Shown piece by piece: positions 27,601-43,834 of a stretch of DNA of 64,000 nucleotides. The position numbers and the translations under genes were made by a program. This stretch comes from a virus. Position 1 is the stretch's first letter. Every line of letters starts with the position of its first letter. The notes below the pieces were generated by a model. The model ran no database searches. It saw nothing but the letters and a program-made list of their open reading frames with translations, and had not been told where the DNA came from. Location of the stretch: positions 47,531 through 111,530 of IMG/VR virus record IMGVR_UViG_3300028044_000003; one strand, 5' to 3'.

Positions 27601-30600
27601 ATAAATCAATAAGATATCCATCAATACTCCCAGTTATTGTTACATCGTTTTTTTTTAATCCTTTAAAACTATTTGTTATTTTAAATGAAGGATATTCTTT
27701 TTTTATAGAGTTTAATAAAGGATGTTTTTTATAGTTTTTTGCAAGTTCTTTTTGAAATTTTTCCATCAAAAATATCTTACCTGTTTCTGAAGCCCCTTCA
27801 AATTGAGATTTTATGTCTTTATATAACTTGTTAAAATAATCACCTTGTTTATCTAAAGTCACCGTAAAATCTAAGTCGTGTAAATCTTCAGTTATTTCTC
27901 TATAAAGAGTACCTTGTTTTCTTAAACTCAAACTTCCTGTAAGTAATAAACCTAATTTTTGAAATTTTGATATTATTTCTTTGGCTTTTTCATCTTTTTC
28001 AATAGTATTGTTATAATTAGTTATTTGTTGTTCTGTATCTAAAATCGTTCCAAACTTATCAAAAGTATTATTTAACACATCGTTTGCAATATCAGATAAT
28101 AAATTTTGTAGTTCGTCATTAGTTAATTTAGTATTTAGAAATAATTTTTCTAAAAACTGTTTTACTTTAGATAAATAATATTTAATTTGTTTTTCTAACT
28201 TACTATTACCATCTATTCTCCAGTAATCGGCTTTTCGATTTTGATAACTATCTCTAGGATTTTCAAAATTATTTTTGATTGCGTCAGCTATAAAATCTAT
28301 AACTATTAATTCTTTTATAGTATAATCATTTAACTGAGGACTTCTTTTTTTATAATCTTCAAAAATTTGTTGATAGTTATTAATATTTTCAATACTATAA
28401 ACTAAATCTGTTCTAATCTTATTTTTTTTACCTAAAAAACTGTAAGCAACATAAGCCGTTTCTTTTAATAATCCTTCGTCTTTAAAATTATTTTTTATTC
28501 GAATAGTTTTATATAATAGATCTGTTACTGCTAAAGGATTAAATTCGTGTAATAATTCGTTTTTAAATTCTGTTGTAAAGTTTAAACTATTAAGGAAATC
28601 AATTAATTTAGACGATAATAAATCTTCAAAATTTATTTGTTCTTCTACTCCTGGTTTAACGTTAGTAAAAGATTGAGTAACAAACTCTCTAAATCCTTCT
28701 ATGTCTTGTTTAGAACCTAATATGTGAATTTGTTCAGGTTCAAATATAAGACCTATATCACCTGGAGTTATAATAGAATCATATCCGTTCTGTATAAATT
28801 TATCTTTATATTTTTGCTCTAAGGAATCGTACTGTAAGCTATCATCTTCAATATAAGGATTTTTTAAATTTAACAACAATCTTTTTATTTTATCTCCAAA
28901 TATACCACTCGACTTATAATAACTAAAATATATACCCGGTGTTTCTATTGCAAAATTTAAATCGAATTTTTCAAAATCCGCTTTACCTTCATGATAAACA
29001 ATATCTTTTACTTTGCTATCAGAAAATATAGTGTCTAGATATTGAGAGTATAGTTGCTGAGCTTGTTGCTTTTGTTGTGGGGTTATTTCTTTAGTGAAAT
29101 CATAACCTTCATCATTAGTAGTAAACCCTTTTGATTTTAAAAATGTTTTTAAATCATTTAATAATTCATCTCTTAATTTATCTCTATTTTCTAATGCTTT
29201 GTCTCCAATATCTTCTATGGAATGTGTTTCTGTGTAAAATGGTCTTATTAATGTAAATTTAACTGCTCCTAAAGAAATTGCTTTATTTATTTTAGGTATA
29301 AATAAATCTAACAATTCATTTATTTTATCTGCTTCAAAATCATAAATTTCTGGCTTTAAAGCTACTTGAGCATTTTTAAAATCTTTATCATCATATTCTG
29401 GAATTCTTTCATCATTAGTAATGATTGCTTTAGATTTAACTACGGTATTAAAACCTAAAGCTTCATATACAGCATTAGCTAATTCAGGATTAGAATCAAA
29501 TAGTTCTTCTACTCCTGGTTTAATTTGTCCTAATGAATAATATAAATAATTAGGGTTTGAAAAATAATCATTAAATGAAGTTTTAAAATCAATAAGGTCT
29601 CTAATATCTTTATTTCTACCTATATCCATCTTAGCTTCAAAAGTATCTTGCCATCTCATGTCTCCAAATGTATTTTTATTAGATGGAGGATTGATATTTA
29701 TAAAAAAGTCAACAGGCATACCTTTGATTATTAAAGTATGAGTTGTTTTTTCACCTTTACTAAATACTTGAGCTTGATTTGTTTTTGGATTTATTTTATA
29801 GGTTAAATCTGGAAAAGTAGATTTTACTAAATCTAACCAGTTATCTTGTAATTCTTTTGGTACTTGCCAATCTAAGTCATGCAAGTTATCATTAGATTCT
29901 CTATATACAGTTCCTTCATTTGAAAGAGCTGGAGAACCTGTAAACATAAAACCTAAAGAATTTAATTTATGATATATTTTATTTATAGTAGAATTATTTT
30001 CTAACACTTCTTTTAAAGATACAACAGTTTCTCCTTTTCTAGCTCTACTAGAATTATTAACTATTTTAGATGTATTATTAAATAATATATCATCTACAAT
30101 TTCATTTATTACAGCATCAAAAGGTCTAATGTTAACTTTATTAACACCTTTAGTTTCAATACCTCTTTGCTTTAAAAATCTATCAACAGCTTTGTAATAA
30201 TCTGATTTCCATATTTTATTAAATAAAGCTAGTATACCATTAATAATAGTTTCTAAAGTTGTTAGCTTTTTATCTTGCTTTGTTTTTTTAGTTCTATCTT
30301 TATTTTCTACTATTCTTTCAGCTAAAAGTTTACTAAGTATTTCAACTTTTAATTTTCTTTCATTGTTTTTATAGATAGGATCATTTTTATATAAATCATA
30401 ATACTGTTGGTATTTTTCCCAACTAGCTATATTTTCTAATGCTCTTCTAATTAATGGAGATGCTTCAGCGTGTTTGCTAGCACCCATAAACTCAATTGCA
30501 AAAGTAGCAACCTCTTCAGCATAATCTAAAGTGTTATATTTGTTAGAATCAAGAAATACAGCTTTGTGTAATATATCAGATACTGCAACAGCATTACTAT

Positions 30601-30955
30601 TTAATCCTTTTTCTTGTAATCTTTTTTGTAAATTATTTACAACTATAGTATCTACATTAATAGATGTTAAAAAATCTTTTAATTTATTTTCAAGGTTGTT
30701 AGCTAATTCAGGATTAGAATCAAATAGTTCTTGAACACTCGGTTTTACTCCTGGTTTTATTTCTTGTACTACTCGTTCACCAGGTTTATTAAAACCCATA
30801 TTTCTGTCAGAAATCTTTTTAATAACTTCTTCAGGAGTACGTATAACACCATCGTTCTCTAACCAATCCCTCATTGCTTCAAACTTACCGATCAAAGGAT
30901 TATTTTCTAAAGCTTTCCACTCTGGAGAATTAAAATTAGGACAAGAATTTTTCAT
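21674..30955 (-). CDS. giant virion-ejected polyvalent protein (2 nucleotidyltransferases, ART-like domain, zincin peptidase, LysM)
   Basis: 3093 aa, directly downstream of vRNAP; GS..DLD motifs at ~29870-29938 and ~27869-27938; VYH..GIYFS..NLKNP..GYDSII; HEFAH 27068-27082; LysM 22545-22676. Confidence 0.85.
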   Translation of the reverse strand: MKNSCPNFNSPEWKALENNPLIGKFEAMRDWLENDGVIRTPEEVIKKISDRNMGFNKPGERVVQEIKPGVKPSVQELFDSNPELANNLENKLKDFLTSINVDTIVVNNLQKRLQEKGLNSNAVAVSDILHKAVFLDSNKYNTLDYAEEVATFAIEFMGASKHAEASPLIRRALENIASWEKYQQYYDLYKNDPIYKNNERKLKVEILSKLLAERIVENKDRTKKTKQDKKLTTLETIINGILALFNKIWKSDYYKAVDRFLKQRGIETKGVNKVNIRPFDAVINEIVDDILFNNTSKIVNNSSRARKGETVVSLKEVLENNSTINKIYHKLNSLGFMFTGSPALSNEGTVYRESNDNLHDLDWQVPKELQDNWLDLVKSTFPDLTYKINPKTNQAQVFSKGEKTTHTLIIKGMPVDFFININPPSNKNTFGDMRWQDTFEAKMDIGRNKDIRDLIDFKTSFNDYFSNPNYLYYSLGQIKPGVEELFDSNPELANAVYEALGFNTVVKSKAIITNDERIPEYDDKDFKNAQVALKPEIYDFEADKINELLDLFIPKINKAISLGAVKFTLIRPFYTETHSIEDIGDKALENRDKLRDELLNDLKTFLKSKGFTTNDEGYDFTKEITPQQKQQAQQLYSQYLDTIFSDSKVKDIVYHEGKADFEKFDLNFAIETPGIYFSYYKSSGIFGDKIKRLLLNLKNPYIEDDSLQYDSLEQKYKDKFIQNGYDSIITPGDIGLIFEPEQIHILGSKQDIEGFREFVTQSFTNVKPGVEEQINFEDLLSSKLIDFLNSLNFTTEFKNELLHEFNPLAVTDLLYKTIRIKNNFKDEGLLKETAYVAYSFLGKKNKIRTDLVYSIENINNYQQIFEDYKKRSPQLNDYTIKELIVIDFIADAIKNNFENPRDSYQNRKADYWRIDGNSKLEKQIKYYLSKVKQFLEKLFLNTKLTNDELQNLLSDIANDVLNNTFDKFGTILDTEQQITNYNNTIEKDEKAKEIISKFQKLGLLLTGSLSLRKQGTLYREITEDLHDLDFTVTLDKQGDYFNKLYKDIKSQFEGASETGKIFLMEKFQKELAKNYKKHPLLNSIKKEYPSFKITNSFKGLKKNDVTITGSIDGYLIDLFFVSDLELDKNEKGFQDWEPIFESKIKMGRAKDIRDFANYIPFNRKSDGSFANIKGFRHFTFSNKNTFIDNKVDSDTITSEDVYDQLREEFIRENSIQEIEPNASEEDRSLSIVFQIAEKLSNKLRVPFQIITSDKAFELTTGTKNPWKGQKAFFLGGKVYFVGNNIDFETQFHEFAHPFVRALMVENPRLMNDLYEKFIATPEGQVILQQTLDEYSGVQDNSGIVKEEVLVKAIQLSASKKAQGIKPDNILPTLIQRFFTGLRTFLNKLFGNKPVSRINENSTLYDLAEILLDDEQFELDSTKITQGDIVAYQNNNAELIKSIMDVTNDNAAPVFEIVKDMYDKARGTIRAMNPLKDKELIEALKDEYQRGDLYDLTQNLNKLKLELEKDLELTKDRANRFVVTLNRVENMVSKLREHIKVINSDLSDLTKKQNLDYIKKLKYYENIINYWSNFTKNTMNVFNNDLKLKTDDPIYSFVNNIDENLENARKEVQGDNETGYLKGVGQVLWEQWEDMAERNDKYYTEIIRTLQLNGAPQSQIEAYHKEYYGLTISEKETYDRLSSARSLNIKDKAQLERLKRKMYTEGVILTKEKILETLKGNLGDSNYFNGWLEGYMYQSDPVIGGFAKFLKDALIEVNVKSFDTYYNQTEVLKPLLDALGYTQRQQGKLGREIGFKDKRGFEEDGEIKPKEVWAFIDKFKDVDYTISQKKLEIRQLKEEYDRTRDSEIEKELNQKKTEYLEYLRKWFHQPYTDVFYAKDDIFKNSAEGAAARELRDNWFNDLNAQTDPDLALDDEALVAENLRALRIRYKEMYSYYDRNGNFKNEFDRKITDILIEHRKLTRNFYEERERIGVFENEFNAFKDRLITVELLDPVTQAEEIRRREDEWLKENTYQRLKVDADGKVIYYNVLREKIQQLNAIKDRMPQGDKQREAMEKISKLLEQQISMVNISKDDNNTPDGTIMSEEQIDTLADIQEQINSLRQDILNVNGFTKKESAQLRGLYRSLDRGIPGIQQLISSLYATAKARKRKAGINDKDLERYNLLVQEISDMSSKEPTEYYLDILNDKIKNIEGLPDDFMLKNFGQDVNEITISNVDRLYENILGLDNEVLKELFKASPEFKAWFEKNHYQEVYYDKDRDNEIEVWKRLNIWTVKTPVGDEYYKKREVTYSNGDVVSINRIPNYKYIRKVVKKEYTDENGNVVKLRTEKIVGKTVTNTKEWLPKELPDSPFRNERYYELKNASPDSRDGKLFKLLEKVKEFHLKNQEGKPVRSRLYYDFPRFESSLYEKIITSKEDRQRGISKTLGKKFPIFEYIIRRIRQFYQKAKDDGLETLNPDLDYDLVRVTSEGIEPDTIPVQGLYNIPIDDVSTDFITSMYAYASSLIKQEKLIEIHPIAKALDQVLKTNTPKELEKLDKKNFLNNAIEFVKGDSNVRSNIYETLMKREFYDERLLGFGKNSKPIQTFSKFIFGRASMAMFALNIPAALKDYLGSKYQKMLLMSGGKYIDPKSIAKGEAWAFKVMSEKSFGSASEGMGPQIYQIGAKTLNVQLTELFQVSMKDPRESFARAASRSLPSDVLGMSWLYNFREWLQGQSETSLFGAMMYKQTVYQYDKPIAYMDAWEIRDGVLTIKEGIDPDYGPRKTTHLFVTGDTMDSISTRYNIPIDELKKRLGLENFNDVEPGTELTIATGAKFKDMLNKFNIVQQSLEGNYANMNQPLAQGFLFFRFISYLKKFFTTMFVERFAFAGDPLSGNIRPRYNPGLNELKMGFYISTLRNLYRLSKNTSEQWGIMNQEERFNMLRMPLEIMGLIFIQSLLLPLFGWDEDDDEKYEKLREKSGDLPLPFIADDPEHPFRLMGWAENHALLLAMNVRSENETFIPLPGFGLDDYTKLLDFQSLAFGPTIESYSKMGALGYHTLMNNERAYYKRDSGPYEWQQEGGSKFITTLAKSIGIDGSNVSPIEKIKQKISIKNRSAGG
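28639..28659. repeat. 21-nt direct repeat (copy of 29503-29523), encodes KPGVEE
   Basis: GTTCTTCTACTCCTGGTTTAA identical at both sites. Confidence 0.9.
29475..29523. repeat. central composite copy of the cassette-boundary repeat (IKPGVEELFDSNPELAN)
   Basis: 29475-29508 is identical to 30699-30732; 29503-29523 is identical to 28639-28659. Confidence 0.92.
30699..30732. repeat. 34-nt exact direct repeat (ELFDSNPELAN)
   Basis: TTAGCTAATTCAGGATTAGAATCAAATAGTTCTT, identical to 29475-29508. Confidence 0.92.
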
Positions 30956-30964
30956 TGAATTTGA

Positions 30965-33900
30965 TTATTTAAAACAAGTTACGAAATTACTAATAACATC
31001 TTGATCTGATACAGGTTGTTGTGAAGTTACTATGTCTTTAAGTTTTTGAGATGAAGTTTCTATTATAAAACCAGGGTTATAATATCCAAAGTTTTTTAAT
31101 AACTCGTTAGATAAATAAAGAAAACCTCCCCTATAATCATCTTTATTCAAACTTTGACCATAACCACTAGAACTTAACATTAAGCTTTTATCTTGGATAT
31201 CTTCTCTAAGCTGTGTAATAAAATTATCTACATCAGTTTTTAGTTTAGGATTAGCAACCAAAATACCTTTATCATTTCTAACATCTTTAAGATTTGTTTT
31301 TAATATATCAAATTTTATTACGTTTGGTTTATTAGGTATTTTTTCTGTTACACCCACACCGTCTACTAAAAATAGAGCTCCTGGAAACATTGAGTATACA
31401 TTTTCCATCGCATTATTATCCCGGTACTCAAATATGTTTTCTTTTAGAGGTTTAACAGTGTCAAAAAAAATACTTTGATCAGTACTTACATCAGTTAATA
31501 GTTCTTTTAAAGATTGAATTTTACTTATTGGTGAAACATTAACAGGGGTTACTTTTGTAGTTACACTAGGTTGAGTAAATTGTATAGATTTAAGTTCCCC
31601 TCTAACTTCCATAAGAAGTTTGGAAAATCTACCTTTATCTTGTTCTATACCATTATATTTATGTGTAAGTTCAGCATTTCCTGTAGCTAATAACTTAGCA
31701 AGAGCATCTGGATTTTGTTGGAAAGAATCTTTTAATAATGCTTTCATAATTGTTGGAGACATGTTATCCCAAACTTTCTGATCTAATCCTTTAAACTCTT
31801 TTCCTAATTCTCTAAGTCTTTTACCATCTTTAGTATCTTTTATAACACTACCTACAGCTCGATTATTCTCATTCTTAGGAGAGAACTCAGTTTTATAATA
31901 TTGAAACGCTTGTTCTACAGAATCAAAATTTATACCTAAGTGTATAAAAGGTCTAATAGCAAAGTTACTTAACTCAGCATTCTCTCCTGTACCAGCGTAA
32001 ATATTAATCTTAATTCCTGCTGCTACTAAAGGATTTGATTCTAGAATCTTGCTTGTCATCTTCATTCCTGTCTTTAAGTCTACATTACTAATGTAAACCT
32101 CACCTGTTTCTTTGTCTACTAAATTATACAAGTCATTATCTTGTAATATCCACTTAGAAGACTGAGGAGCTTTTTCTCTTTTACCTGTAGATTTATTATA
32201 AAACTCTTTAAATCTTGTATTAGTAGTAAAAAATTCTTTAGGCATCTTACCATCAGATTTTTCTACATATTGATTGTATGCATCTATATCTGATTGAGAA
32301 ATAATTTTTACACTTTCACTTTCATCTTCTTCTTGAGGTTTTACTTCAGTACCCCAATCATATTTATTAATAAGATAATCTAAAGCTGTAGCGTGAGTAG
32401 CATAATTCTTTTCTTCATAATAAAGAATAGGACTTTTTATTATTTTACTTGATTTAATATCGTTAATAATAGCTTGTCTATATTCTTTTGTAGCATTAGT
32501 ATTACCAAAATTATTACCAGTAATCATCCACTCAATAAACTTTTTAGTAGATTTTATACCTTGTTCTTTTCTTGTACCTGTTTCATCTGCAAAATCAAAA
32601 GGATTACCTACAGTGTTTCCATCTTTATAATTTTGTAAAAATGTTTTTTTCTTGTTTCCTCTGTATGCAATTAGCATAGGTTTCTTACCAGGAAACTTAT
32701 AATCAAACATAGATTTTGCTTCTGGAACAATATCATTCCAAAAGTTTTTACCTGTATATTCTGTGTTTTCTTCTAAATCTTTAGGTAAGATAACATTTTC
32801 TGATTGTATTAAATTGTCTTTGTTTATGTCAGAATAAATTTCTTCTGCTGTTAAAATAACTTGCGGTTGAGTAGTAAGTTTAGCTGGTGTTGCGGGTATA
32901 CCTGGTTCTAAATCCGCAGCTCTTCTAAATGTAAGGGTAATAGTATAATTAGTAATAACTCTACCATCTGAAAGTTTAATTGGCGGATAAGGATTCTTCT
33001 TTATATTTCCTAATGGCGTTGTGTGAGAGAGAGCAAATCTACCTTTACCATCCATACCAAATGTATAAATAGTACCATCTTTAGTAGCAATTTCATTAGT
33101 AGGTTTTCTTCCTTGGTAATCTTCTTTATAGGCACCTTGGAAAGTTATCTTACCTTTATTATCATCCCATATACCAAGGCCAGAATTATTACCTATTGTA
33201 TAAACAACAACAGGATATCCTTTAGCAGACTTAGCTTCTGTAGTATCTCTATGCGGAGCTATACTTTGGTTATCTAAATATATGTTTCCCAATATAGAAT
33301 CATAATCAGACATATCTAGACCTAAAGCGTTTTGTATTTTATCAATTAACGGTTGTAAATCTGATATAGGAGGTAAAGGATTACCGTTTTGATCTAATTC
33401 GTGATAGTCATAAATATATTTTGACTTATCTACTGTTAATCCAGCTTTTTTTAGAGCCGCTATTTGTTGTTTAGTTTTTTCAACACCAGCAAAAGAATTA
33501 ATTAATAATGGTTTTGCTTTAAGATTTACTCTTGACCACATACGACCAAAAGAAAACTGCCAGTTAGCATTAACTCCAACATTTTCTTTATAAGCTTGTC
33601 TCTGAATTTGAGGAGCTATAAGATTTATAATTTCTTGAGTATCAACTTTTGTAGGATTTGTATCAACTTTAACAACACCGTAATCTGGAGAAACTACTTT
33701 AATTTCAGAAATAAAATCTGATGTTGCCGATATTTCAGATATTTTTTCTAAACCTTTACCAGCTAAAACTTTATTGATAGCTTCTAACTCTTTAACTTGA
33801 TATTTTCTTAACTCTTCAAGAGTTTTAAATCTTTTTAATAATTGTACTTCGTTAGTTATTGTAAAAAATAAATCTACTACCGGTAAATGGTGTAAAGAAC

Positions 33901-36900
33901 CTGTTAATACTGTATACCCACGTTTTGCAAATTCTTTTAATCTACCTCTAACTCTTTCCTTAACTTCATCATTTTTATAACTATATTTTTTTGAAAAATC
34001 TAAAATAATACCTTGAGGAGTTGTTTCGGTAGTTTTAAACTCAGGAACTACTTTATATATTTCTTCTATAGTAATGTCATCAGCGTCAATAACGCTTAAA
34101 GGGTTTTTAGATTTAAAAGTTGTTTTACCAGAGCCAGGAGTAAGGTATATAACCTTACCGCGATATTCGTCTTTTATAGTAATATATTTATCAATAATTA
34201 TATCAGTGTTGTTTGATAAAAAGTCTGCTGAATAATTTTTAGTTCTAGAACCAAAAAATCTATTTAATAAAACGTTATAGTCAGTTAATATATTTTGATT
34301 ATCAGAAATAGATCTGATATATTTATTAATTACTTTTGGATTAAGTACATCTAAATACCTTTGAGGATTTACTAATCTCGTTAAAGTGAATTGGGTACCG
34401 GATATAAAACCTGATTGTAATAACGCTACTATCTCAAACTCTTCAAAAAACTCAGATATTGCCCTATTAATCTGAACATTTTCTACTTTTTTTACTGTAG
34501 GATCTTTTAACTGATTTAACTCATAATTTAGAACTTGTAGTAAATCTTTAGTTAACTGTACGTTTTTTAAAGTCAAATTTTTATAACCGCGGAACTCGTT
34601 TATGTTTAAGATTTCTACCAGCTTATAATCATTAACCAATTTTGGATAACGGTTTTTTATATTATAAAACCTCTGAGCATAATTATTACTTTCTGTAACA
34701 TCTTCGTTTATAACTGTTTGGAATATAGCTCTTGGATTATAAGTTTTTCTAAGAGCTTGATTTTTTAACCATTTTTCGTATTTTTCTACTCTTTTTACTT
34801 TATCTTCAATGTCTTTGTACTTAGTTTCTATAGGGAACATTACCCTGAATAACTCTCTCTGTACTAAAAATTCAGCAAACTGTTTATCATTAGTAAAATA
34901 ACCCTTATAGCTTTTATCCCTATATGTTTTAATATTTTCATCAGAAATTTTATCTACCGGTTTATTATACTGTACGGTTTCTCTGTATAATTTTTTTACA
35001 GTAATAGGATCTATATAAATAGTATACTTATCCTCAGTTTTTGTAACAATTACTCCAAATTCAGAATAGTTAATTTTTTTAGCTTCTGTATCTTTTTTAA
35101 ACTTGACTTCAACTCCTTTAAAACTATTAGCTTTAGTGTAATCAAACTCTAAAATTTCTTTTTGGAAAATGTAAGTAAGTAGGTGATTCTTAAAAGTTTT
35201 TACTTTATACTCTTTATCATCTTTATTAAGAGTATTTTTTACTACATCGCTTGCTATAAAATTATTTAACTCTAGGTTATTTCTTAGAGGAAATAATTTT
35301 GAAATAAACGCTTCAAGATAATCTTTGATAAAAAAAGATTTAAGCATTGTTTCTTTTTCTAACGCTTGTATTTTATCAAGAGGTATACTATCGTCTTTTT
35401 TAATTTTATTAATTTGTTGTTCTTTTTCAATTAGCTCGTATAACGATGCTGGACGAGTAGTATCTGGATTAAAGTTTAATTTAATAGCTCTAACCTTATC
35501 TGACATTTCTTCTACTTCTAAGTAATGTAAAAAGATAAGCTGTTCGTATAATTTTTTAACTTCTGGTTCTATATTTTGCGTCTCATCATCGATTAAGTTT
35601 TGTAAAACTTCTTCTAAAACTCTACCATCATCATCTAGATTAATATTATAATCTAGATTTAATCGATCTTTAATACTACTTATTTTTACATAAGGATTTG
35701 AAATATCATTTTGCGAAAGACCTAATTCTTCACCTATTTTAAATTTTACTTCACTAGTATTTGTTTCAGATAATAAACTATTTGCAGCAATTTTACTATC
35801 GATATATTCAACAATAATCGGCTGACTCATAAAGTTAACTATAGTAGTAAACGGAACACCGGCCTGAACTAAGAATAATATTTTAGGAGCGGCCTCTTTG
35901 TTACCCTGGATATTAAAAATCCAAGGATCTTTTGCTACGTCTACCCATCCGTTAATTAACTGAGATATTACATCAGCTATACGGTTAACACCATTCACAT
36001 CCGTAACATCAGATAAAGAAATAGCTTTTTCATTATCTACTATTAGACTTCTATGTGGTATTAAAAGTCTTTGAGGAAGCCTTTTAGGAACAGTATTATT
36101 TGTTCTTGTAGGATTCATATACATCCCTACAATATTGAATAATGTGTTAAAAGTATTATCTACGGCGCCAAGCCCTAAAGCTTGTTTACCAACAGAGTTA
36201 GAAGTATGACTATGTAAATTATATCCGTATTCAAATATTTTCGTTTCAGCTATTAAAGGTTTTTCTTCTGTACCTAAAAAACCATCAATCGTTTTGTTTC
36301 TAAAAGGATTGTATTTTTTAGATTTAGAAGCCATTCTAGTAGCTTCTGGTTTAGCAATATCAGTATCGTTTGGTGTAATTAAAGATTTAAAATTACTATC
36401 TAATGCTAGTATATCTTTTACTACATTAATAAGATTGTTCTCTAAACCTTTTACAGTATTTTCTGAGGTATCATATTTTACAACACCATCTTTAATACTA
36501 AGGTTAGGCATAGTTACGTTTAACTTATCAACGTCAAAATCCGAACCTGATTTAACAACAATTTCTATCGGAGGAATAATAATATTACCTGCTTCTTTTG
36601 GTAAAAACTCTGCTACCTCCATAAACTCCATAGAGTTATGGCCTTGTACAGGAATACGTACACCAATCATAGTAATCATTTTACGATTACTACCAGTATT
36701 TAACCAAGTTTCATTCTTAATTAATTTATTAAGATTTGCTAAAGAAGCTTTATAGTTTAATTCTTTTTTAGGTTTACCGTTCTCATCTTTTACTTCATCA
36801 TAAACAGCTACTTCTTTTAGATAAAGTAGTTTTTCAAAATCACCTTGTATGGCAATTTTAACTTGCATACTTACTGTACCGTCTTTACCCTTGTGATAAA

Positions 36901-39900
36901 ACCTTAAACCGTTGGTACCGTATTTAAGTATATCTTTTTGATCGGGTTTTTTAAAACCAGATTGTTGCCAGCCTACACTAGATACCTGGATTAAACCTTC
37001 TCCCTTAACTTTTTGAGTAATTAATTTTCTAACAACAAGAGATGTAATTAATTTTTCAATTTTTTCAGCTTGAGGGGTTAAAGAAAAATCTACATTGTTT
37101 AATTCTGTAGCTGAAAAGTTTAAAAAATCTAATTCATAATCTGCGATCTCTTGACGCGTTAATTCTTTTTTTACAAACTCTACAAGGTTTATTAATTTAC
37201 CAGAAGGTTTACCGTTTTTTATCTCCCAGCCTATTTCATTAAGTAGTTCTTTTTTCTTAGCTTCAGTTAAATCATTTACTACTCGGTTATAGTCTTGTAA
37301 TAAACGATATTCTTTAGACTGTAGTTTTATTTCTTTAGGTTCAGAGTTCCATAAAGATATCCTATCTTCTAAACTTAAACCTTCGTTTATTTTATAATCG
37401 GCAGGAACCCCGTTTACCATTAAACTTTCAGCTACAAGTTTTCTTAACTGACTGGCAAATATTACTTTCTTTTTAAACTTAGGAGCAATGTCTACCTGAT
37501 TTTTAAGATACTTTAGATGTATTGTGTTTTTAGTATACTCAAAATTGTTATTGTTTGATAATGTGTTACCAGCTTCGTTTAAATATTTATCTGGATTATC
37601 TTTCCTAGAAAGAGTTCCCACCTTAGATCCGGATATAAATGTAACGTAACCTATATTTTCCCTGGTTAATTTATCGTGTAATTCTTTAAGTATACTATTT
37701 TCACCTATTACTGAAGGGATTAACGGCATTAAAGAATACTTATGAAAAGCGGTTATAGGTAAACCATTAGTTATTAAAGGCCCGTAATATTGATCTTTCA
37801 TAACCGGGAAGAACTCAAGAATATCTTCTAAATTAACAGTATCACCGTTAAGTATTTTATTGTAAAGAACATCTTGATCGTTTGACCAAGTACCTTTTAA
37901 ATAATTTAACTCGCGATATTTATCAAAAGTTATATAACCCTGAGCATTTGTAGATTCTTCTTTTCCAGTATATTTAGAAGCTTTTTTAGAACCTAAGATT
38001 TCTTCAAAAGCAGCAGCATAGTCCGACTTAACCGTTTCATCTTGTAATACAGCGGTATTCATAGTACCGTCAAATAACTCGTCATATTCTACGCCAAGTT
38101 TTTGAGCATAAGTTGAAAAACGATTATTAGGTTTAACTGTTGTTCTTAGATTATTAATAAAACTTAAAGCTTTTTTATCAGTTCTATAAATATTACCAGT
38201 AGAACCGGCACCTGCTATACGTTTATTAGCTTCTTGTTTTGTATGTTCAAAAGAAGCAACGTTACCGTAAAAAATAGTGTAAGCTTCTACGTTATTTATA
38301 AACGTATTAGCAAACATAAATCTAGAAATAACATCAAACCTTTCATAAATATTTAAGTTTGATAATTTTTTATCATTTAATAATGACTCACTAAACCCAA
38401 TACTTAGTTTCTTGTTGGTTATTAAGTCTGTTAACGGATTTAAAATATCTGCTTTGTAACCTTTATTAAAGTAATTTGTAATATCAGTTTGTATTTTACT
38501 TAATAAAACTAGATCTTTACTATTAAGATATTCTTCTAGCTCACTTGTTTTTAAATATTCTTTATTTTCTAAAAGTGTTAATAATTCTTCTTTAGTATCT
38601 TTTCTTAAGATATCTTTAAACATTAAAAAATCAGAACCTCTCTGAGCATATTTCCAATCAAATACAGCGTTAGTACTTTTGTCTAAATCCCTTAGTATTT
38701 TTATACGATCTAATTCAGCGTTTAAATAACCTATAAGGATATTGGTAAAAGTCTGAGTACCGGTATTTTTATCTTTTATAAAAGTATCCAAATCAATATA
38801 AGCTCTGGAATTACTTCCTAATACTTTGGTTAAAGAATAACTATAAGAAGTAGACTTATCTGAATGACGAGGTAGTTCAAATATTCCAAGTTTTATAGCT
38901 AAAGCTATATCAGATACTCTTTTTGTTGTAGGATCTGCTGAGGCAAGTGCAATACCTTTACTAAACTCTTCATCATCGTATATAGCTGTACCACTAAGAT
39001 TTTGTAAGTCTAATTTAACATTAGCTGCGTTTTGAAAATTAGATTCTTTTAATTTGTTACCGAAAGTTTTTAAACCGTTTTCATCAGTTATTTCTTCAAA
39101 CAATGATTTTAATACGATAGATCTTTTTGCATCCGGATTTCGTTTAATATCAAAATGACTCATCCAGGGTAACGTTATAAGCTCCTGGTAAGTGTTTACT
39201 TCATTTATCGTATTAGTTATAATCGTTAGTTCGTTATTTAAACTATGTTCAAACTGAGTCTCTCCTTCAGCGTTTAAAACCATAAACGATAAATTAGTCT
39301 CACCGTATGTAGCTTCTAGTTTAGCATAATTTTCAAATAAATAACTTAGATCTACTATATTCTCAGAATCAGATTCCTTCCAAAACTCGTCTACAGTTAA
39401 ATTATTATTTTTTAATTTACTGATTTTTGTAAGTATAGTTTTAAGATTGTCTTGTGATAAACCTATTTGACTATCACCTAGTTTAATAGAATCTTTGATT
39501 AAACTTGTATTACTTACATATACTCCTAGAGAGTGTAAAAAAGATATAGGGTTTTCTTTAACCTTATCAAGACTATTGAAATTTTTAAATATTTGACTCA
39601 AGTTAAGTACCTTGGTCGTATAAGTTTGATCATTTCTTTTTACATCAATAGAATAAATAGACTCTTTAGTTTTAAAATTATCTCGCCATAAAGATTTTAA
39701 CTTGCTAGTTTGACCATAAGATTTACCAGCAGTTACTTCCCAACCAGTAACATCTTCTCCTAACTCTGTTCTTTTTAAATTTACTTGTAGTAATTTAATA
39801 TAAGACTTGTTAAAAGATTGCCAGAAACGAGTTTGTAATTTGAATCTTTCTACATCAGAACCTATTTCATCAATACCGCCTAATCTTTCAGCTATTTGAC

Positions 39901-42900
39901 CAAATATATTAGTTAAGTCTTTATCACCACGTTTAATTATATTCTGATACATTTTATCAAAATCTAAATTATTTTGTGTAGCGGTGATAGCTTTATTCCA
40001 GGCTATGTTAAAAGGAATAAACTTTGGAGTACCGTAACGATTTACTTTTAATACTTTTCTGTCTTCTTTAATATCATAGTCTATCATAGTACCTAACATA
40101 AATTGAATTTCTTCAAAGGCCAATTCCTGGGTAGACTTATCGATACCTGTTCTGTCAGCGTACTCTGAAAAACCTTGTTCTCGTTTTTCAGCTTCTATAG
40201 CATCTTGTTCTTCTTGTGTTAGATTTTCTTTAACTGGTTGTTTAGCAGCTTCTTTACTTTTTTCCTCTAATAAATCTTTAGCTTTTAGAGGGATGATATT
40301 AGATTTTCTTATATGATAATTTATTAAACCACCTTTACTACTGTTAAGATTATCTAATATATTATCAAGATTTCCAAAATTATCAATAGCTAAAGACAAT
40401 TCTTGAAACTTATTTAATAATAAACTATAAGCATCAGTATTAGTACTAGTATTTTTAAGTTGTAAATTGGTTAACGATCTTAACAACTCAAGATCTGATT
40501 TAACTATCTGGTATGCTTTTTTTAATTTTTCAGGATCGTTTATATATGTTAAAAAATTTCCTTCATAATTTTGTTTACCAATAACTGGTTCAAGATTTAC
40601 TATACTATTGTATATTTTATCTTTATAAATTTTTTGTTCGTCTGTATCAGACGGTAAGTTATTATATTTATTTATAATTGCTTGAAGCTGGTCTTTAGTA
40701 AATGTTTTTGTAGCACTTGAATAATTAATTTCAGTATTATTAACTACTGCAGAAAAATAATAATCCATACTAGATAATATTTCTACACTAGAACCACCTA
40801 AAAGAATATTTTCTTGTTTTTGATTATCAGTTTGATAAGTCTTTGGTCCTTCGTAAGCTAATGAATCAAACCTTTTAAAGTTATTCCAGGAAAAAGGTTG
40901 TTCAAACAAAGGCCCTTTACCAGTATTTAGCTGTTCGTACATATTATAGAGATATGGTACCGATGATTGTCCTTTAGCTAAATCTATAGTAGTTAGATTT
41001 TTAAATAACTCAATTAGTAGATCTTTAATTTTTCTGAATATATCTTTCTTAGCAGGGGCTTTTACAAACTCACCTTTACCTGTTAACATGTATTTTCTAA
41101 AATCTTCAGCTAAATACTCTTCTAACTCCAGGTCTGAAGCTTTACTAAATTTTACAAAAGAACCAGTATGGGTTTTAAATACTCCAGGTAGTTTACGAGC
41201 TTCTGAGTAAAGCTTATCTTGTTGTTCTTTTGTTAATAGGGTTTGAGTAAATATATGCCAAGCTTCGTGATACAAATCAGTAGAGTCAGAACCCATGTAT
41301 AAAGTAACGCCGGCTCTATTAAACTCAGCTACTTTTTCCATGTTCATAATACTCCTCATATCGTTCATCTTCCAAATATCGGAAGCCATTCGTGCTGCTG
41401 GATGATTAGCAAACCATTTATTAGCTCTTTCTTCGTATTGTTTTAAATCAGAACCTAACTGATTTTCAAGAGCTTTCTGAGTATTGTTTTTATCAAGTCC
41501 TAATAGTTCACTTAATAAATCTTCATCTTCATCAGGTTTTACCTCTAGTATAGTTTTATTCTCAAAAGTTATGTAGGGATTATAGAACTTAACTTTATTA
41601 TCAATAGAAGTATAAAAAGGTAAAGTAAAATTGTTTTTTATAAAACTACGATAAGAGATTACATTATCTATTATTTGATTCTGGTCGTTTATTTCAAAAT
41701 CATTAATCATGAAATTTCGAACGCTTTCTTTAATATGCAGTTTAGCTTTTTCTATAACATAAAATTTATCATTAAACTTAAATACATCATTTACCTTTAG
41801 TTGGCTTTCAGAAACTACTTTACCTTGTAATAAAAATTTACCTTCAGAAAAACTGTAAGGTTTATTTTTATAATTTTCTATTTGTAAATCACTTAAGTCT
41901 TCTTCTTTATCGGTTTTAGGGTTACCGTGTAGACCGTTAAAGTATTTTTGTAAAGCTTCAACAAATTTTTCTTTATTTATTTTTTCAATTTTGTTACCAA
42001 TAACTTGTTCAAAAATAAAATCGTTATTATTATTTCTCTTTAATATAAAAGATTGAAAATTAACGGTTAATAATAAGTTATTATCTTTAATAGTTAATTG
42101 AAAACCAGAACTTGCTTTAATATTAATAAACGTTTCAATTATATCTTTAATTTCTGAATTAACTAAAACCTTATCCGAACTATCTGTTACTTTTTCAGTT
42201 AAAAGTTTTGTTATGTTTTGAGCATATTTAGAATCAAAAGTTAATTCTTTTCTTTCGATAGTAACCGGTATATTTAAAGTTGCTGTCTGATGCTGAATAG
42301 TTACCTCACCGTTATTATTTATTGTATAATTAAAAGGTATTTCTACATTATTAACTTTAAAATCTATATCAGATAATAGTGTATAATCATTTTTATCATC
42401 TTTTCGTATAACAGTCCCATAACTACCACCCACTATATTAAAAGATTCTTTATAACCAACTTCTTTATTTTCAAGATATTTGAATGTTTTATAAAGATCT
42501 AGTAACTGGGATTTTATTATAGAATCAACTTCTTTTGTTTGTTCGTTTTTAAACGTACCCTTGATATTATAAACTTTACTTAATTCAATAACTACTGTAC
42601 TATATACATTAGTTTTAGAATTATTAAACACTGTATCATCTATTACATCTATACCTAGTTCATCTTGTTTAACTAAATCAGATAATTTAACTTTAGAGTC
42701 AATCCCAAAAGAACTTAAATTAAAAGGATTTGTCTTTTTAGATTGGCCCGTTTTATTACTTATATCAAACGTATCTGTGTTAAAAAGAATTTCTGTATCA
42801 TCTTCAAAAGCAAATGTAGAATAGTAGTTATTTTTTTCTTTAACAATAATTACTTTTACTTTTTTATCAAACATTAACGGAGTACCGGATACATACAAGT

Positions 42901-43834
42901 TACTTACGACACTTCTAATAGCAGCTTCGTATAAATTATTTAATAGAATATTTGGCCTTTCTACATTTATATTTGTAGTTTCTCTATTAAAACTAGGATT
43001 ATCAGAAGCTTTTTTTAAAGCTATATTATCATCTGGTATATTAGAAAGTTTTGGATTAGATTCTGTTCCGGGTAACATATAAGCCATATCGGTAAATATT
43101 ACCTTACCTTGTTTAATATAATAGTAAGGTTTAAAACCCTCTTCCCACTTAGAACTGTTTGGTAATTTAACTAAATAAGGGGCCGTTATATTAACAGTAC
43201 TTGATATATTAAATATATTATGAGGAATTACTCTGTAATTAGACGCTTTATTTTCTTGACCTAATAAAATTTGAACATCGTTTGATGGATCAATAGTTCT
43301 ATCGTAAAGACTGATATCTCTTTTTAAGTCACTTAACTGAAGAACTATTGTTTGGTTTTTTATATAACTCTTACTTAGTTCTTCTAAAGCTTTTACTGAT
43401 TTATTATCTTCATTTTTTTTTATTTCTTCTTGAAGAGCTAATTCTTCATTTACTGAATTAATATTAGCAATACTAATTACATCTTGTGATTCGCTAACAT
43501 AACTAGCAACTTCTGATAATCCATCTACAGAATCAAATTTTAGTTTAAGTTGATTTATTATGTCTAGAGATAAACCAGAAGCGTCAAATCTTTTAGTAAA
43601 CTCTTCATTAGCACCATAAACATTTAGTATACCGGAAGGTATTAACTTAACATAAGCTAGGGCTAATACTGGCGCTTTACCTTTACTAAGGTAAGCGTTA
43701 TAAATAAACTTCATAAAATCTTCTAGATCATAATTATCAGAAAGTTCATTTTGTAATAGTCCGATAATATTATCTAATGTTTTTTTTTTCTCTTGGTCTG
43801 TTAATCTAATTTCCAGACTACAATTATTACTCAT
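30965..43834 (-). CDS. virion-packaged RNA polymerase (crAss/phi14:2 gp66-like) fused to a zincin peptidase and C-terminal kinase, AlkB-like, DUF4326-like and NADAR domains
   Basis: 4289 aa; catalytic GSDFDVDK at 36527-36541 preceded by RIPVQGHNSM; HEAWH...EEYLAE at 41255-41269; accessory motifs as in findings. Confidence 0.9.
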   Translation of the reverse strand: MSNNCSLEIRLTDQEKKKTLDNIIGLLQNELSDNYDLEDFMKFIYNAYLSKGKAPVLALAYVKLIPSGILNVYGANEEFTKRFDASGLSLDIINQLKLKFDSVDGLSEVASYVSESQDVISIANINSVNEELALQEEIKKNEDNKSVKALEELSKSYIKNQTIVLQLSDLKRDISLYDRTIDPSNDVQILLGQENKASNYRVIPHNIFNISSTVNITAPYLVKLPNSSKWEEGFKPYYYIKQGKVIFTDMAYMLPGTESNPKLSNIPDDNIALKKASDNPSFNRETTNINVERPNILLNNLYEAAIRSVVSNLYVSGTPLMFDKKVKVIIVKEKNNYYSTFAFEDDTEILFNTDTFDISNKTGQSKKTNPFNLSSFGIDSKVKLSDLVKQDELGIDVIDDTVFNNSKTNVYSTVVIELSKVYNIKGTFKNEQTKEVDSIIKSQLLDLYKTFKYLENKEVGYKESFNIVGGSYGTVIRKDDKNDYTLLSDIDFKVNNVEIPFNYTINNNGEVTIQHQTATLNIPVTIERKELTFDSKYAQNITKLLTEKVTDSSDKVLVNSEIKDIIETFINIKASSGFQLTIKDNNLLLTVNFQSFILKRNNNNDFIFEQVIGNKIEKINKEKFVEALQKYFNGLHGNPKTDKEEDLSDLQIENYKNKPYSFSEGKFLLQGKVVSESQLKVNDVFKFNDKFYVIEKAKLHIKESVRNFMINDFEINDQNQIIDNVISYRSFIKNNFTLPFYTSIDNKVKFYNPYITFENKTILEVKPDEDEDLLSELLGLDKNNTQKALENQLGSDLKQYEERANKWFANHPAARMASDIWKMNDMRSIMNMEKVAEFNRAGVTLYMGSDSTDLYHEAWHIFTQTLLTKEQQDKLYSEARKLPGVFKTHTGSFVKFSKASDLELEEYLAEDFRKYMLTGKGEFVKAPAKKDIFRKIKDLLIELFKNLTTIDLAKGQSSVPYLYNMYEQLNTGKGPLFEQPFSWNNFKRFDSLAYEGPKTYQTDNQKQENILLGGSSVEILSSMDYYFSAVVNNTEINYSSATKTFTKDQLQAIINKYNNLPSDTDEQKIYKDKIYNSIVNLEPVIGKQNYEGNFLTYINDPEKLKKAYQIVKSDLELLRSLTNLQLKNTSTNTDAYSLLLNKFQELSLAIDNFGNLDNILDNLNSSKGGLINYHIRKSNIIPLKAKDLLEEKSKEAAKQPVKENLTQEEQDAIEAEKREQGFSEYADRTGIDKSTQELAFEEIQFMLGTMIDYDIKEDRKVLKVNRYGTPKFIPFNIAWNKAITATQNNLDFDKMYQNIIKRGDKDLTNIFGQIAERLGGIDEIGSDVERFKLQTRFWQSFNKSYIKLLQVNLKRTELGEDVTGWEVTAGKSYGQTSKLKSLWRDNFKTKESIYSIDVKRNDQTYTTKVLNLSQIFKNFNSLDKVKENPISFLHSLGVYVSNTSLIKDSIKLGDSQIGLSQDNLKTILTKISKLKNNNLTVDEFWKESDSENIVDLSYLFENYAKLEATYGETNLSFMVLNAEGETQFEHSLNNELTIITNTINEVNTYQELITLPWMSHFDIKRNPDAKRSIVLKSLFEEITDENGLKTFGNKLKESNFQNAANVKLDLQNLSGTAIYDDEEFSKGIALASADPTTKRVSDIALAIKLGIFELPRHSDKSTSYSYSLTKVLGSNSRAYIDLDTFIKDKNTGTQTFTNILIGYLNAELDRIKILRDLDKSTNAVFDWKYAQRGSDFLMFKDILRKDTKEELLTLLENKEYLKTSELEEYLNSKDLVLLSKIQTDITNYFNKGYKADILNPLTDLITNKKLSIGFSESLLNDKKLSNLNIYERFDVISRFMFANTFINNVEAYTIFYGNVASFEHTKQEANKRIAGAGSTGNIYRTDKKALSFINNLRTTVKPNNRFSTYAQKLGVEYDELFDGTMNTAVLQDETVKSDYAAAFEEILGSKKASKYTGKEESTNAQGYITFDKYRELNYLKGTWSNDQDVLYNKILNGDTVNLEDILEFFPVMKDQYYGPLITNGLPITAFHKYSLMPLIPSVIGENSILKELHDKLTRENIGYVTFISGSKVGTLSRKDNPDKYLNEAGNTLSNNNNFEYTKNTIHLKYLKNQVDIAPKFKKKVIFASQLRKLVAESLMVNGVPADYKINEGLSLEDRISLWNSEPKEIKLQSKEYRLLQDYNRVVNDLTEAKKKELLNEIGWEIKNGKPSGKLINLVEFVKKELTRQEIADYELDFLNFSATELNNVDFSLTPQAEKIEKLITSLVVRKLITQKVKGEGLIQVSSVGWQQSGFKKPDQKDILKYGTNGLRFYHKGKDGTVSMQVKIAIQGDFEKLLYLKEVAVYDEVKDENGKPKKELNYKASLANLNKLIKNETWLNTGSNRKMITMIGVRIPVQGHNSMEFMEVAEFLPKEAGNIIIPPIEIVVKSGSDFDVDKLNVTMPNLSIKDGVVKYDTSENTVKGLENNLINVVKDILALDSNFKSLITPNDTDIAKPEATRMASKSKKYNPFRNKTIDGFLGTEEKPLIAETKIFEYGYNLHSHTSNSVGKQALGLGAVDNTFNTLFNIVGMYMNPTRTNNTVPKRLPQRLLIPHRSLIVDNEKAISLSDVTDVNGVNRIADVISQLINGWVDVAKDPWIFNIQGNKEAAPKILFLVQAGVPFTTIVNFMSQPIIVEYIDSKIAANSLLSETNTSEVKFKIGEELGLSQNDISNPYVKISSIKDRLNLDYNINLDDDGRVLEEVLQNLIDDETQNIEPEVKKLYEQLIFLHYLEVEEMSDKVRAIKLNFNPDTTRPASLYELIEKEQQINKIKKDDSIPLDKIQALEKETMLKSFFIKDYLEAFISKLFPLRNNLELNNFIASDVVKNTLNKDDKEYKVKTFKNHLLTYIFQKEILEFDYTKANSFKGVEVKFKKDTEAKKINYSEFGVIVTKTEDKYTIYIDPITVKKLYRETVQYNKPVDKISDENIKTYRDKSYKGYFTNDKQFAEFLVQRELFRVMFPIETKYKDIEDKVKRVEKYEKWLKNQALRKTYNPRAIFQTVINEDVTESNNYAQRFYNIKNRYPKLVNDYKLVEILNINEFRGYKNLTLKNVQLTKDLLQVLNYELNQLKDPTVKKVENVQINRAISEFFEEFEIVALLQSGFISGTQFTLTRLVNPQRYLDVLNPKVINKYIRSISDNQNILTDYNVLLNRFFGSRTKNYSADFLSNNTDIIIDKYITIKDEYRGKVIYLTPGSGKTTFKSKNPLSVIDADDITIEEIYKVVPEFKTTETTPQGIILDFSKKYSYKNDEVKERVRGRLKEFAKRGYTVLTGSLHHLPVVDLFFTITNEVQLLKRFKTLEELRKYQVKELEAINKVLAGKGLEKISEISATSDFISEIKVVSPDYGVVKVDTNPTKVDTQEIINLIAPQIQRQAYKENVGVNANWQFSFGRMWSRVNLKAKPLLINSFAGVEKTKQQIAALKKAGLTVDKSKYIYDYHELDQNGNPLPPISDLQPLIDKIQNALGLDMSDYDSILGNIYLDNQSIAPHRDTTEAKSAKGYPVVVYTIGNNSGLGIWDDNKGKITFQGAYKEDYQGRKPTNEIATKDGTIYTFGMDGKGRFALSHTTPLGNIKKNPYPPIKLSDGRVITNYTITLTFRRAADLEPGIPATPAKLTTQPQVILTAEEIYSDINKDNLIQSENVILPKDLEENTEYTGKNFWNDIVPEAKSMFDYKFPGKKPMLIAYRGNKKKTFLQNYKDGNTVGNPFDFADETGTRKEQGIKSTKKFIEWMITGNNFGNTNATKEYRQAIINDIKSSKIIKSPILYYEEKNYATHATALDYLINKYDWGTEVKPQEEDESESVKIISQSDIDAYNQYVEKSDGKMPKEFFTTNTRFKEFYNKSTGKREKAPQSSKWILQDNDLYNLVDKETGEVYISNVDLKTGMKMTSKILESNPLVAAGIKINIYAGTGENAELSNFAIRPFIHLGINFDSVEQAFQYYKTEFSPKNENNRAVGSVIKDTKDGKRLRELGKEFKGLDQKVWDNMSPTIMKALLKDSFQQNPDALAKLLATGNAELTHKYNGIEQDKGRFSKLLMEVRGELKSIQFTQPSVTTKVTPVNVSPISKIQSLKELLTDVSTDQSIFFDTVKPLKENIFEYRDNNAMENVYSMFPGALFLVDGVGVTEKIPNKPNVIKFDILKTNLKDVRNDKGILVANPKLKTDVDNFITQLREDIQDKSLMLSSSGYGQSLNKDDYRGGFLYLSNELLKNFGYYNPGFIIETSSQKLKDIVTSQQPVSDQDVISNFVTCFK

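Follow-up and report, generated by a model that had tools for sequence, protein, structure and literature searches.

The 64,000-nucleotide (nt) stretch of DNA considered here (positions 47,531 to 111,530 of the IMG/VR record IMGVR_UViG_3300028044_000003, hereafter the window) comes from an uncultured phage that is represented by a metagenome-derived record of 111.5 kb, rated 93% complete, and the G+C content of the sequence is ~25–37%. Our analysis concerns a gene in this window for a protein of 4289 amino acids (aa), which on account of its catalytic motif, its homology and the gene order around it is identified as a single-chain virion RNA polymerase (vRNAP) of the crAss type. Beyond the part that corresponds to the known polymerase, this protein continues into a C-terminal tail of six modules, and these modules are, to judge from comparison of related sequences, individually mobile cassettes. 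The explanation that we favor, to which we assign a probability of about 0.62, is that the vRNAP serves as the backbone of a polyvalent effector, the tail of which constitutes a pre-loaded kit for repair and counter-defence.

The 4289-aa reading frame is a single uninterrupted open reading frame (ORF), free of stop codons. In BLASTP comparisons with gp66 of phage phi14:2, three collinear segments of similarity were detected (E values of 5.6e-12, 1.1e-10 and 1.2e-8), and the DFDVD catalytic motif is contained in the most significant of these (aa 2385–2448 versus gp66 1314–1377; E 5.6e-12). A tblastn search with approximately aa 1880–2580 as the query led to the RNA polymerase genes of phi14:2, crAss001, crAssphage and ~125 other phage records; a phmmer search against the solved gp66 chain gave no direct match. 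The gene is located within a run of giant genes, with products of 960, 1552, 4289 and 3093 aa, for which the equivalent gene order in phi14:2 is gp079, gp078, gp077 (= gp66) and gp076, and the proteins of this phi14:2 block are annotated as structural from tandem mass spectrometry proteomics. By the BLASTP offsets, gp66 would end opposite about aa 3200 of the vRNAP, which makes the final ~1075 aa of the latter additional, and in relation to gp66 it also has ~1000 extra residues at the N-terminus. The size of gp66 (2180 aa) agrees with the statement in an earlier note on this DNA that the vRNAP is about twice as long. In two other crAss-like phages in GenBank, cr118_1 (H6/H7, 24268–26634) and cr50_1 (H56), the gene that matches the vRNAP core is annotated as 'DNA helicase' or 'exonuclease V', which is likely due to a fused superfamily 1 (SF1) helicase cassette, and public annotations may conceal a polymerase in genes of these types.

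The earlier note had described the tail as a train of five domains. The string of domains is real, but their number is six. Parts of the tail were modelled by AlphaFold and the C-terminal architecture was compared across relatives, as had been proposed there, and a modular tail was seen; the motifs by which its parts had been recognized were located at aa 3229 (IYLTPGSGKT), 3248 (VIDAD), 3653 (LTTQPQV), 3828 (GTEVKPQEED) and 4085 (QFTQPSVTT). The linkers between the modelled modules are predicted to be disordered, with predicted local distance difference test (pLDDT) scores <50 at residues 155–170 in the model of the P-loop module and at residues 177–192 in a second model.

The first module had been taken for a P-loop kinase-like domain, and this fold class is supported by its AlphaFold model (pLDDT 84; predicted template modelling score 0.80) together with structural searches. 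All of the top Foldseek rows were small P-loop kinases (dephospho-CoA, adenylate and shikimate kinases) with E values of 4e-3 to 3e-2 and probabilities of 0.9–1.0, and the comparisons by VIA, in which the Z values for this module are middling, identified shikimate kinases (Z 7.5, with a root mean square deviation, rmsd, of 3.5 over 118 aligned residues; 7.3 and 7.2), an adenylate kinase (7.1), the RNA-repair kinase Pnkp1 (7.0) and T4 polynucleotide kinase (6.1). In an alignment of 16 sequences, the G-x-G-K of the PGSGKT motif and the second Asp of DADD were invariant. The family itself is rare and without a name: library searches placed the module in no Pfam or PHROG family, a HMMER search of 1.84 billion representatives retrieved only 77 relatives, and the members of the family showed weak matches to AAA_22, AAA_18 and AAA_33 only, and to no named kinase family. 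Some of the relatives are stand-alone proteins of ~155 aa and many are within giant proteins, and in smaller proteins the family occurs in fusions with AlkB, with NADAR and with a histidine phosphatase. Neither a search for homologues of near-equal length nor a single-query search for related loci gave a match to the P-loop module.

The second module scored 28.2 bits (E 2.7e-6) against the family 2OG-FeII_Oxy_2 (PF13532), for which the gathering cut-off is 31.2 bits. A cassette that is ~51–52% identical to it in the relative P0003 passes this cut-off with 32.6 bits, and that from P0110 scored 30.8 bits. In an alignment of five such cassettes, H3528-R-D3530, H3604 and the Arg of ..LTFR.. were all invariant, and these residues are found opposite H131/D133, about H187 (one column off) and R210 of Escherichia coli AlkB in an hhalign comparison that was not significant (E 0.37). 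The identification of this module as an AlkB-like dioxygenase is supported by the HxD...H triad and by the relative above the cut-off, although its own score is sub-threshold and the first Arg of a characteristic pair, discussed below, is missing.

The label DUF4326-like, which had been given to the third module, is only weakly supported, by an hhalign match, as the module fails the family hidden Markov model (HMM) and is without three invariant cysteines. No match to the DUF4326 (PF14216) HMM was found at E≤10 either for this module or in a six-frame translation of the whole genome. For comparison, 11 genuine DUF4326 genes were gathered from ~800 bacterial genomes, and hhalign against ten aligned proteins from this set gave an E value of 0.0049 and a probability of 7% over 29 columns, which include the GNPF motif, a conserved Arg and a Trp. 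Of the DUF4326 motif CxC...CH.D, in which C67, C69 and C74 do not vary across the DUF4326 alignment, inspection of the sequences showed that the family of module 3 has Y, E and T at the three cysteine positions and keeps the H and D. The AlphaFold model of the module (pLDDT 73–95 over most of its length) placed two DUF4326 proteins in the top eight rows of BFVD, with probabilities of 0.47 and 0.18 that are not significant, and PTP/rhodanese-type phosphatases recurred as weak rows in VIA (Z 2.4–3.7), in agreement with the rhodanese-phosphatase superfamily to which DUF4326 has been assigned in the literature (PMC9503650). We consider the module to be possibly a distant, Cys-less relative of DUF4326 and have not filed it as a member. 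A second NADAR domain was also considered for this module, since a NADAR structure formed the top VIA row for the model of modules 3 and 4 (Z 4.4, rmsd 4.6, 119 aligned residues), and was rejected, as hhalign against the NADAR family gave a probability of 0.06%. The search for near-length homologues of module 3 retrieved fragments of giant proteins only; Foldseek searches of the PDB and BFVD with a model of this module plus the ~85-aa module that follows gave nothing significant, and the Protein Atlas provided no usable lead for either of them.

The fourth module is the domain of ~85 aa that the earlier note had left without a function, and it proved to be a discrete and recurrent unit, which is present in 14 relatives with 37–69% identity, one of these copies being N-terminal in its protein. 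It matched no family in Pfam or PHROG, and its model consists of helices followed by five strands at pLDDT 47–68. The fifth module, which had been named NADAR, is above the Pfam gathering cut-off (PF08719; 50.4 bits versus 35.1, E 4e-13) and also matches the structures of YbiA (2b3w) and NADAR (8bau). The sixth module lies C-terminal of NADAR, beyond the region that had been described earlier, and in relatives it is usually the last module. It is linked to the extreme C-termini of 11 relatives by direct BLAST and of ~40 by iterated search. The DUF7831 (PF25176) HMM did not match it at E≤10; in contrast, an hhalign comparison of 11 C-terminal copies (its own included) with five from DUF7831 proteins, the Pfam position of which was checked for four, gave a probability of 98.8% and an E value of 9.6e-17 over 119 columns. 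Single-query searches for related loci with modules 4 or 6 gave no match, and the nine related IMG/VR records that were searched contained neither of the two.

Pieces of the tail are common to 262 giant proteins of 2400–5700 aa, and the order and position of the modules were counted in the best 119 of these. In these 119 relatives each module was also found alone, at other positions and in other orders (e.g., DUF4326-like, AlkB, NADAR; NADAR, AlkB, DUF4326-like; and ~85-aa unit, AlkB, NADAR), being placed downstream of the core or within an array at the N-terminus, or being absent. The identity of the relatives to the 4289-aa protein has a median of 27.7% in the core, while that of single cassettes reaches 74–88%. 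The borders of the AlkB cassette are sharp and, as read from the nucleotide alignments, recombination-like: at both of its ends the DNA identity to three relatives rises from 16–53% to 70–100% within one 30-nt step. Upstream of this cassette the neighbor is the P-loop, NADAR, ~85-aa or DUF4326-like module depending upon the phage, and its downstream neighbor varies too, so that no two of four relatives have the same neighbor. The conserved edge of the AlkB cassette ends in ..PAKLxTQP, and TQP is enriched 2.6-fold in the giant proteins, which indicates that what appear to be linkers are partly the ends of cassettes. The commonest extra cassette in the relatives is an SF1 helicase (34/120, by a hand count of Pfam assignments), and they also carry LPD23, a DUF6782 peptidase, ART-PolyVal (PF18760), a RecD/PIF1 helicase and DUF7831. 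The co-occurrence of the DUF4326-like module and NADAR in the 119 relatives was not above chance (7 observed, 6.8 expected).

The earlier note regarded the tail as a second cassette array, which is fair in concept; however, no direct DNA repeats were found at the linkers inside the vRNAP tail, in contrast to the neighboring gene for the 3093-aa protein, where repeats at module borders extend over 47 nt at 68–89% identity and 20 nt at 90%. In comparisons of the tail with GenBank phages, megablast gave no match and tblastn only NADAR, in genes other than those for polymerases. Following a common AlkB cassette, the IMG/VR locus L016 (5805–5925) contains a glycine-rich sequence, ..HSGGAIGSD.., which may be reminiscent of SLOG/DprA-type loops, and L015 (5805–5925) contains ..NFGVTNP.., which resembles module 6, an example of how the cassette downstream can differ. 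Copies of NADAR with 42–51% identity to that of the vRNAP are present on contigs of metagenome-assembled genomes (MAGs), viz. L019 (WLWP01000004.1, 'Pseudomonadales') and L021–L023 (Bacteroidota/Flavobacteriales). The first of these contigs, which at 114,697 bp is as large as a crAss-like genome, may be a phage contig that was binned into a bacterial MAG, and the names of some MAG samples (e.g., L022, 'stroublescreek ... sw') point to surface water or fresh water.

A further characteristic of the vRNAP is the distribution of its cysteines, of which there are only two, Cys5 and Cys4287. The seven consecutive minus-strand genes at 21674–56740 have six Cys in ~11,660 aa, while most of the other ORFs within the window have ~0.3–2.7% Cys. 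The 1552-aa protein encoded upstream has one Cys, which is its last residue, and the 3093-aa protein encoded downstream has one, Cys5. A Cys within the last eight residues is present in 115/120 relatives, irrespective of which module is last, and one within the first ten in 91/120, and the relay of cysteines across gene junctions was also observed in phi14:2 and in seven IMG/VR loci. In cyanopodophage A4, a disulfide between Cys1715 and Cys5 of the consecutive ejection proteins gp27 and gp26 has been solved (PMC12002296). If the terminal Cys forms a disulfide of this kind, this would offer a reason for the DUF4326-like module being Cys-less. We put forward, only tentatively and as something that we rather doubt in its full form, that the span from the core to the terminal Cys is a payload slot, in which whole domains are exchanged at precise linker borders between otherwise unrelated crAss-like phages, that this slot is kept free of Cys so that the terminal Cys ties the polymerase through a disulfide to the next ejected protein, and that the three unassigned modules (the kinase-fold, ~85-aa and DUF7831-like modules) are counter-defence or repair enzymes not described so far, which would reach the cell within the first seconds of infection. 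Such a slot, if real, would be the domain-level analogue of a gene-cassette system. The positions of all of these features are given in Table 1.

Table 1. Features of the vRNAP gene and its neighbors. Positions are those of the window, residue numbers (aa) those of the vRNAP.
Feature	Position	Strand	Basis
crAss-type virion RNA polymerase ORF, 4289 aa, with N- and C-terminal extras	30965..43834	-	ORF and tblastn
Cys5 of vRNAP	43820..43822	-	sequence
HEAWH, aa 856-860, sole HExxH of vRNAP; possible zincin-type peptidase site	41255..41269	-	motif only
DFDVD catalytic motif, aa 2432-2436	36527..36541	-	aligned opposite DFDID 1361 of phi14:2 gp66
Module 1, small P-loop kinase-fold domain (PGSGKT, DADD, LTGS), aa 3215-3376	33707..34192	-	HMMER, AlphaFold, Foldseek, VIA
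Module 2, AlkB-like Fe(II)/2-oxoglutarate dioxygenase cassette, aa 3377-3657	32864..33706	-	borders by DNA identity jump
Module 3, Cys-less domain with GNPF..R..W core, weak DUF4326 likeness, aa 3658-3828	32351..32863	-	model, hhalign
Module 4, recurrent ~85-aa unit, no family, aa 3840-3925	32060..32317	-	BLAST recurrence, low-confidence model
Module 5, NADAR domain, aa 3941-4084	31583..32014	-	Pfam
Module 6, divergent DUF7831-like domain (FGYxNP motif), aa ~4122-4258	31061..31471	-	BLAST, hhalign
Cys4287 of vRNAP, three residues from end	30974..30976	-	sequence
Facing-terminus Cys codons of neighboring genes	43841-43843, 30941-30943	-	
Direct DNA repeats at module borders, N-terminal third of 3093-aa gene	28611-28662, 29475-29526, 30699-30762		families D1, D5

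The function that we propose for the tail follows what is known of gp66, a virion component that is delivered into the cell together with the DNA and makes the early transcripts, using single-stranded DNA (ssDNA) as a template far better than duplex DNA (10.1101/2020.03.07.982082). By analogy, the vRNAP would be packaged inside the capsid as a whole chain and would be threaded along with the DNA into the cell, so that its enzymes would lie next to the incoming genome ahead of all phage gene expression. In crAss001, RNA polymerase proteins are packed as cargo and must partly unfold in order to pass the tail (PMC10172136), and for this reason small domains on disordered linkers appear well suited to threading. 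Once inside, the modules would most plausibly clear the ssDNA template and the first transcripts of host marks and blunt immunity that is based upon ADP-ribose (ADPr). NADAR would take ADPr off guanine or off soluble ADPr derivatives, and ribose-linked phosphates would be the substrates of the DUF4326-like module. Methyl lesions in ssDNA or RNA would be removed by oxidation through the AlkB-like module, the kinase-fold module would transfer phosphate to a nucleotide or to the end of a nucleic acid, and the protein that is ejected next would be gripped by the terminal Cys. The families of NADAR and AlkB-like proteins act on modifications of nucleic acids or ADPr, and it is this common denominator of the modules, i.e., single-stranded nucleic acid and ADPr chemistry, beside a polymerase with an ssDNA template, that leads us to favor a kit for repair and counter-defence.

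Different considerations bear upon whether the tail belongs to a genuine protein that is delivered intact. The provenance of the record from a metagenome (IMG/VR) and the recoding of stop codons in some crAss-like phages could lead one to suspect that the long ORF results from mis-assembly, a chimeric contig or the merging of separate genes by a wrong genetic code. However, a stop-free frame of 12.9 kb in DNA of roughly 25–30% G+C is not a product of chance, recoding adds stops under translation table 11 rather than removing them, an identical 4289-aa protein (P0002) is on record from a contig of 112,867 bp, and the fused design is repeated in 262 independent proteins from many samples, so that we regard an artefact as extremely improbable. 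A cleavage of the tail before or during packaging, for which the HExxH region or a protease of the head could be responsible, after which it would not be delivered and would act only in the producing cell or as an appendage for assembly or scaffolding, is quite unlikely in our estimation, but has more in its favor. The HExxH is kept in 84/135 relatives, Drobysheva et al. deem the proteolytic activation of gp66 and the cleavage of a fused polyprotein possible, and polyvalent proteins such as DdrB of P1 are processed before packaging, while the N4 vRNAP is packaged unprocessed (PMC5512222). The Cys in the last eight residues, which faces the N-terminal Cys of the protein of the next gene, also argues against cleavage, as it would be sensible to conserve this Cys only if the chain still extends to its very terminus at the time of cargo assembly.

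It could also be that the modules perform housekeeping for the polymerase, keeping the template and the nascent RNA free of lesions or processing the ends of transcripts, with no role against host defences. AlkB enzymes prefer ssDNA as their substrate, and the preference of gp66 for ssDNA matches this; the SF1 helicase cassette of the relatives would supply ssDNA, and the kinase-fold model resembles the polynucleotide kinases Pnkp1 and T4 Pnk. Nevertheless, housekeeping predicts a fixed set of modules, whereas those observed have a patchy distribution, vary in order and are passed between distant phages, phi14:2 gp66 functions although it has none of the six, and NADAR and DUF4326 are tied to ADPr conflict systems in the literature (PMC9503650). 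On this balance we consider it improbable that housekeeping is their only role, and this account overlaps with our proposal and does not exclude it.

A number of observations weigh against a repair and counter-defence kit and need to be set beside those in its favor. Three of the six modules are without known function. In the DUF4326-like module the three cysteines of DUF4326 are lost, so that it may act differently or not at all. The score of the AlkB-like module is below the Pfam cut-off (28.2 versus 31.2 bits), and its comparison with the AlkB structures in the PDB, by single sequence or shallow profile, gave none that was significant. The RxxxxxR pair of AlkB binds 2-oxoglutarate, and the first Arg of this pair is an invariant Thr in module 2, although the second (..LTFR..) is kept. 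Additionally, the relatives were chosen by similarity to the tail, so that the frequencies reported are biased and do not represent prevalence, and the higher identity of the cassettes in comparison to the core could partly reflect a fast-evolving core.

Upstream of the polymerase core, the vRNAP contains a HExxH motif (LYHEAWHIF), which is absent from phi14:2 gp66, and from this motif the region may be a zincin-type peptidase able to process the chain. The relatives that were examined in detail align from ~aa 430–1840 onward, mostly from ~aa 800, the exception N-terminal of this being a short match of aa 11–130 to one relative, and aa 1–~800 of the vRNAP gave no Pfam match. In other relatives, the N-terminal region (43834 to ~41400, aa 1–~800) is occupied by AlkB, NADAR, DUF7831 and the kinase-fold module, which indicates the existence of a second, N-terminal slot.

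The crAss-like phages rank with the most abundant of all known viruses, and the injected polymerase is the first phage enzyme that meets the host. If this polymerase carries exchangeable demodifying enzymes, then the marks that they undo, such as ADP-ribosylated guanine, methyl lesions and ADPr-derived signals, would be a direct read-out of the defences that these phages face. The cassettes without a family are candidates for new counter-defence activities, and the sharp borders of the cassettes provide a natural system for studying the in-frame exchange of domains.

The theme of polyvalent virion proteins has already been published, and the term 'multidomain' has been used for proteins of the crAss transcription block (Yutin et al.); our literature search found no paper in which crAss-type polymerases are described as carrying cassettes of the AlkB, NADAR or kinase type. 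The vRNAP shares with phi14:2 gp66 the DFDxD motif, the homology around it, a location within a block of giant virion-protein genes and the presence of only two Cys, one at each end. It differs in that gp66 ends where the tail of the vRNAP starts and is without AlkB, NADAR, kinase-fold, DUF7831-like and HExxH parts. In cyanophage A4, the Cys1715–Cys5 bond of gp27 and gp26 has the same geometry as Cys4287 of the vRNAP and Cys5 of the 3093-aa protein; however, A4 belongs to a different phage group, its proteins include no polymerase and no cassette array, and in crassviruses such a bond is only a possibility suggested by the sequences.

AlkB domains are present in the replicase polyproteins of plant flexiviruses. 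The replicase polyproteins of RNA viruses resemble the vRNAP in combining a demodifying enzyme and a viral polymerase in one chain, for which NADAR and Macro domains provide a case (PMC9503650), but they differ in polymerase class, host and delivery route, and the likeness is one of analogy only. The authors of a survey of viral NADAR, Macro, SLOG and DUF4326 domains (Iyer et al., 2022; PMC9503650) propose that NADAR is packaged in virions and that NADAR, as well as its fusions with DUF4326, counteracts ADPr signals. For DUF4326, a clade of the rhodanese phosphatases that is often fused to NADAR, they propose a role in processing ribose-linked phosphates. In the vRNAP a DUF4326-like module precedes NADAR, with one module in between, although the domains in that survey are typically standalone in phages, crAss phages are unmentioned, and module 3 fails the HMM and is without the cysteines.

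A close published concept is that of the polyvalent proteins, which include the N4 vRNAP with its zincin peptidase domain (Iyer, Burroughs, Anand, de Souza, and Aravind, 2017; PMC5512222); NADAR, AlkB and DUF4326 have no occurrences in that paper. The N4 backbone is T7-like, in contrast to the two-barrel crAss-type polymerase described here, and the 4289-aa protein itself has no LPD or ART domain by Pfam and shows the HExxH motif only. Like the vRNAP, however, the polyvalent proteins are giant, virion-associated chains of unrelated enzymatic domains, for which injection and early action are predicted, and their hallmark LPD23, ART-PolyVal and metallopeptidase domains are carried by the relatives of the vRNAP.

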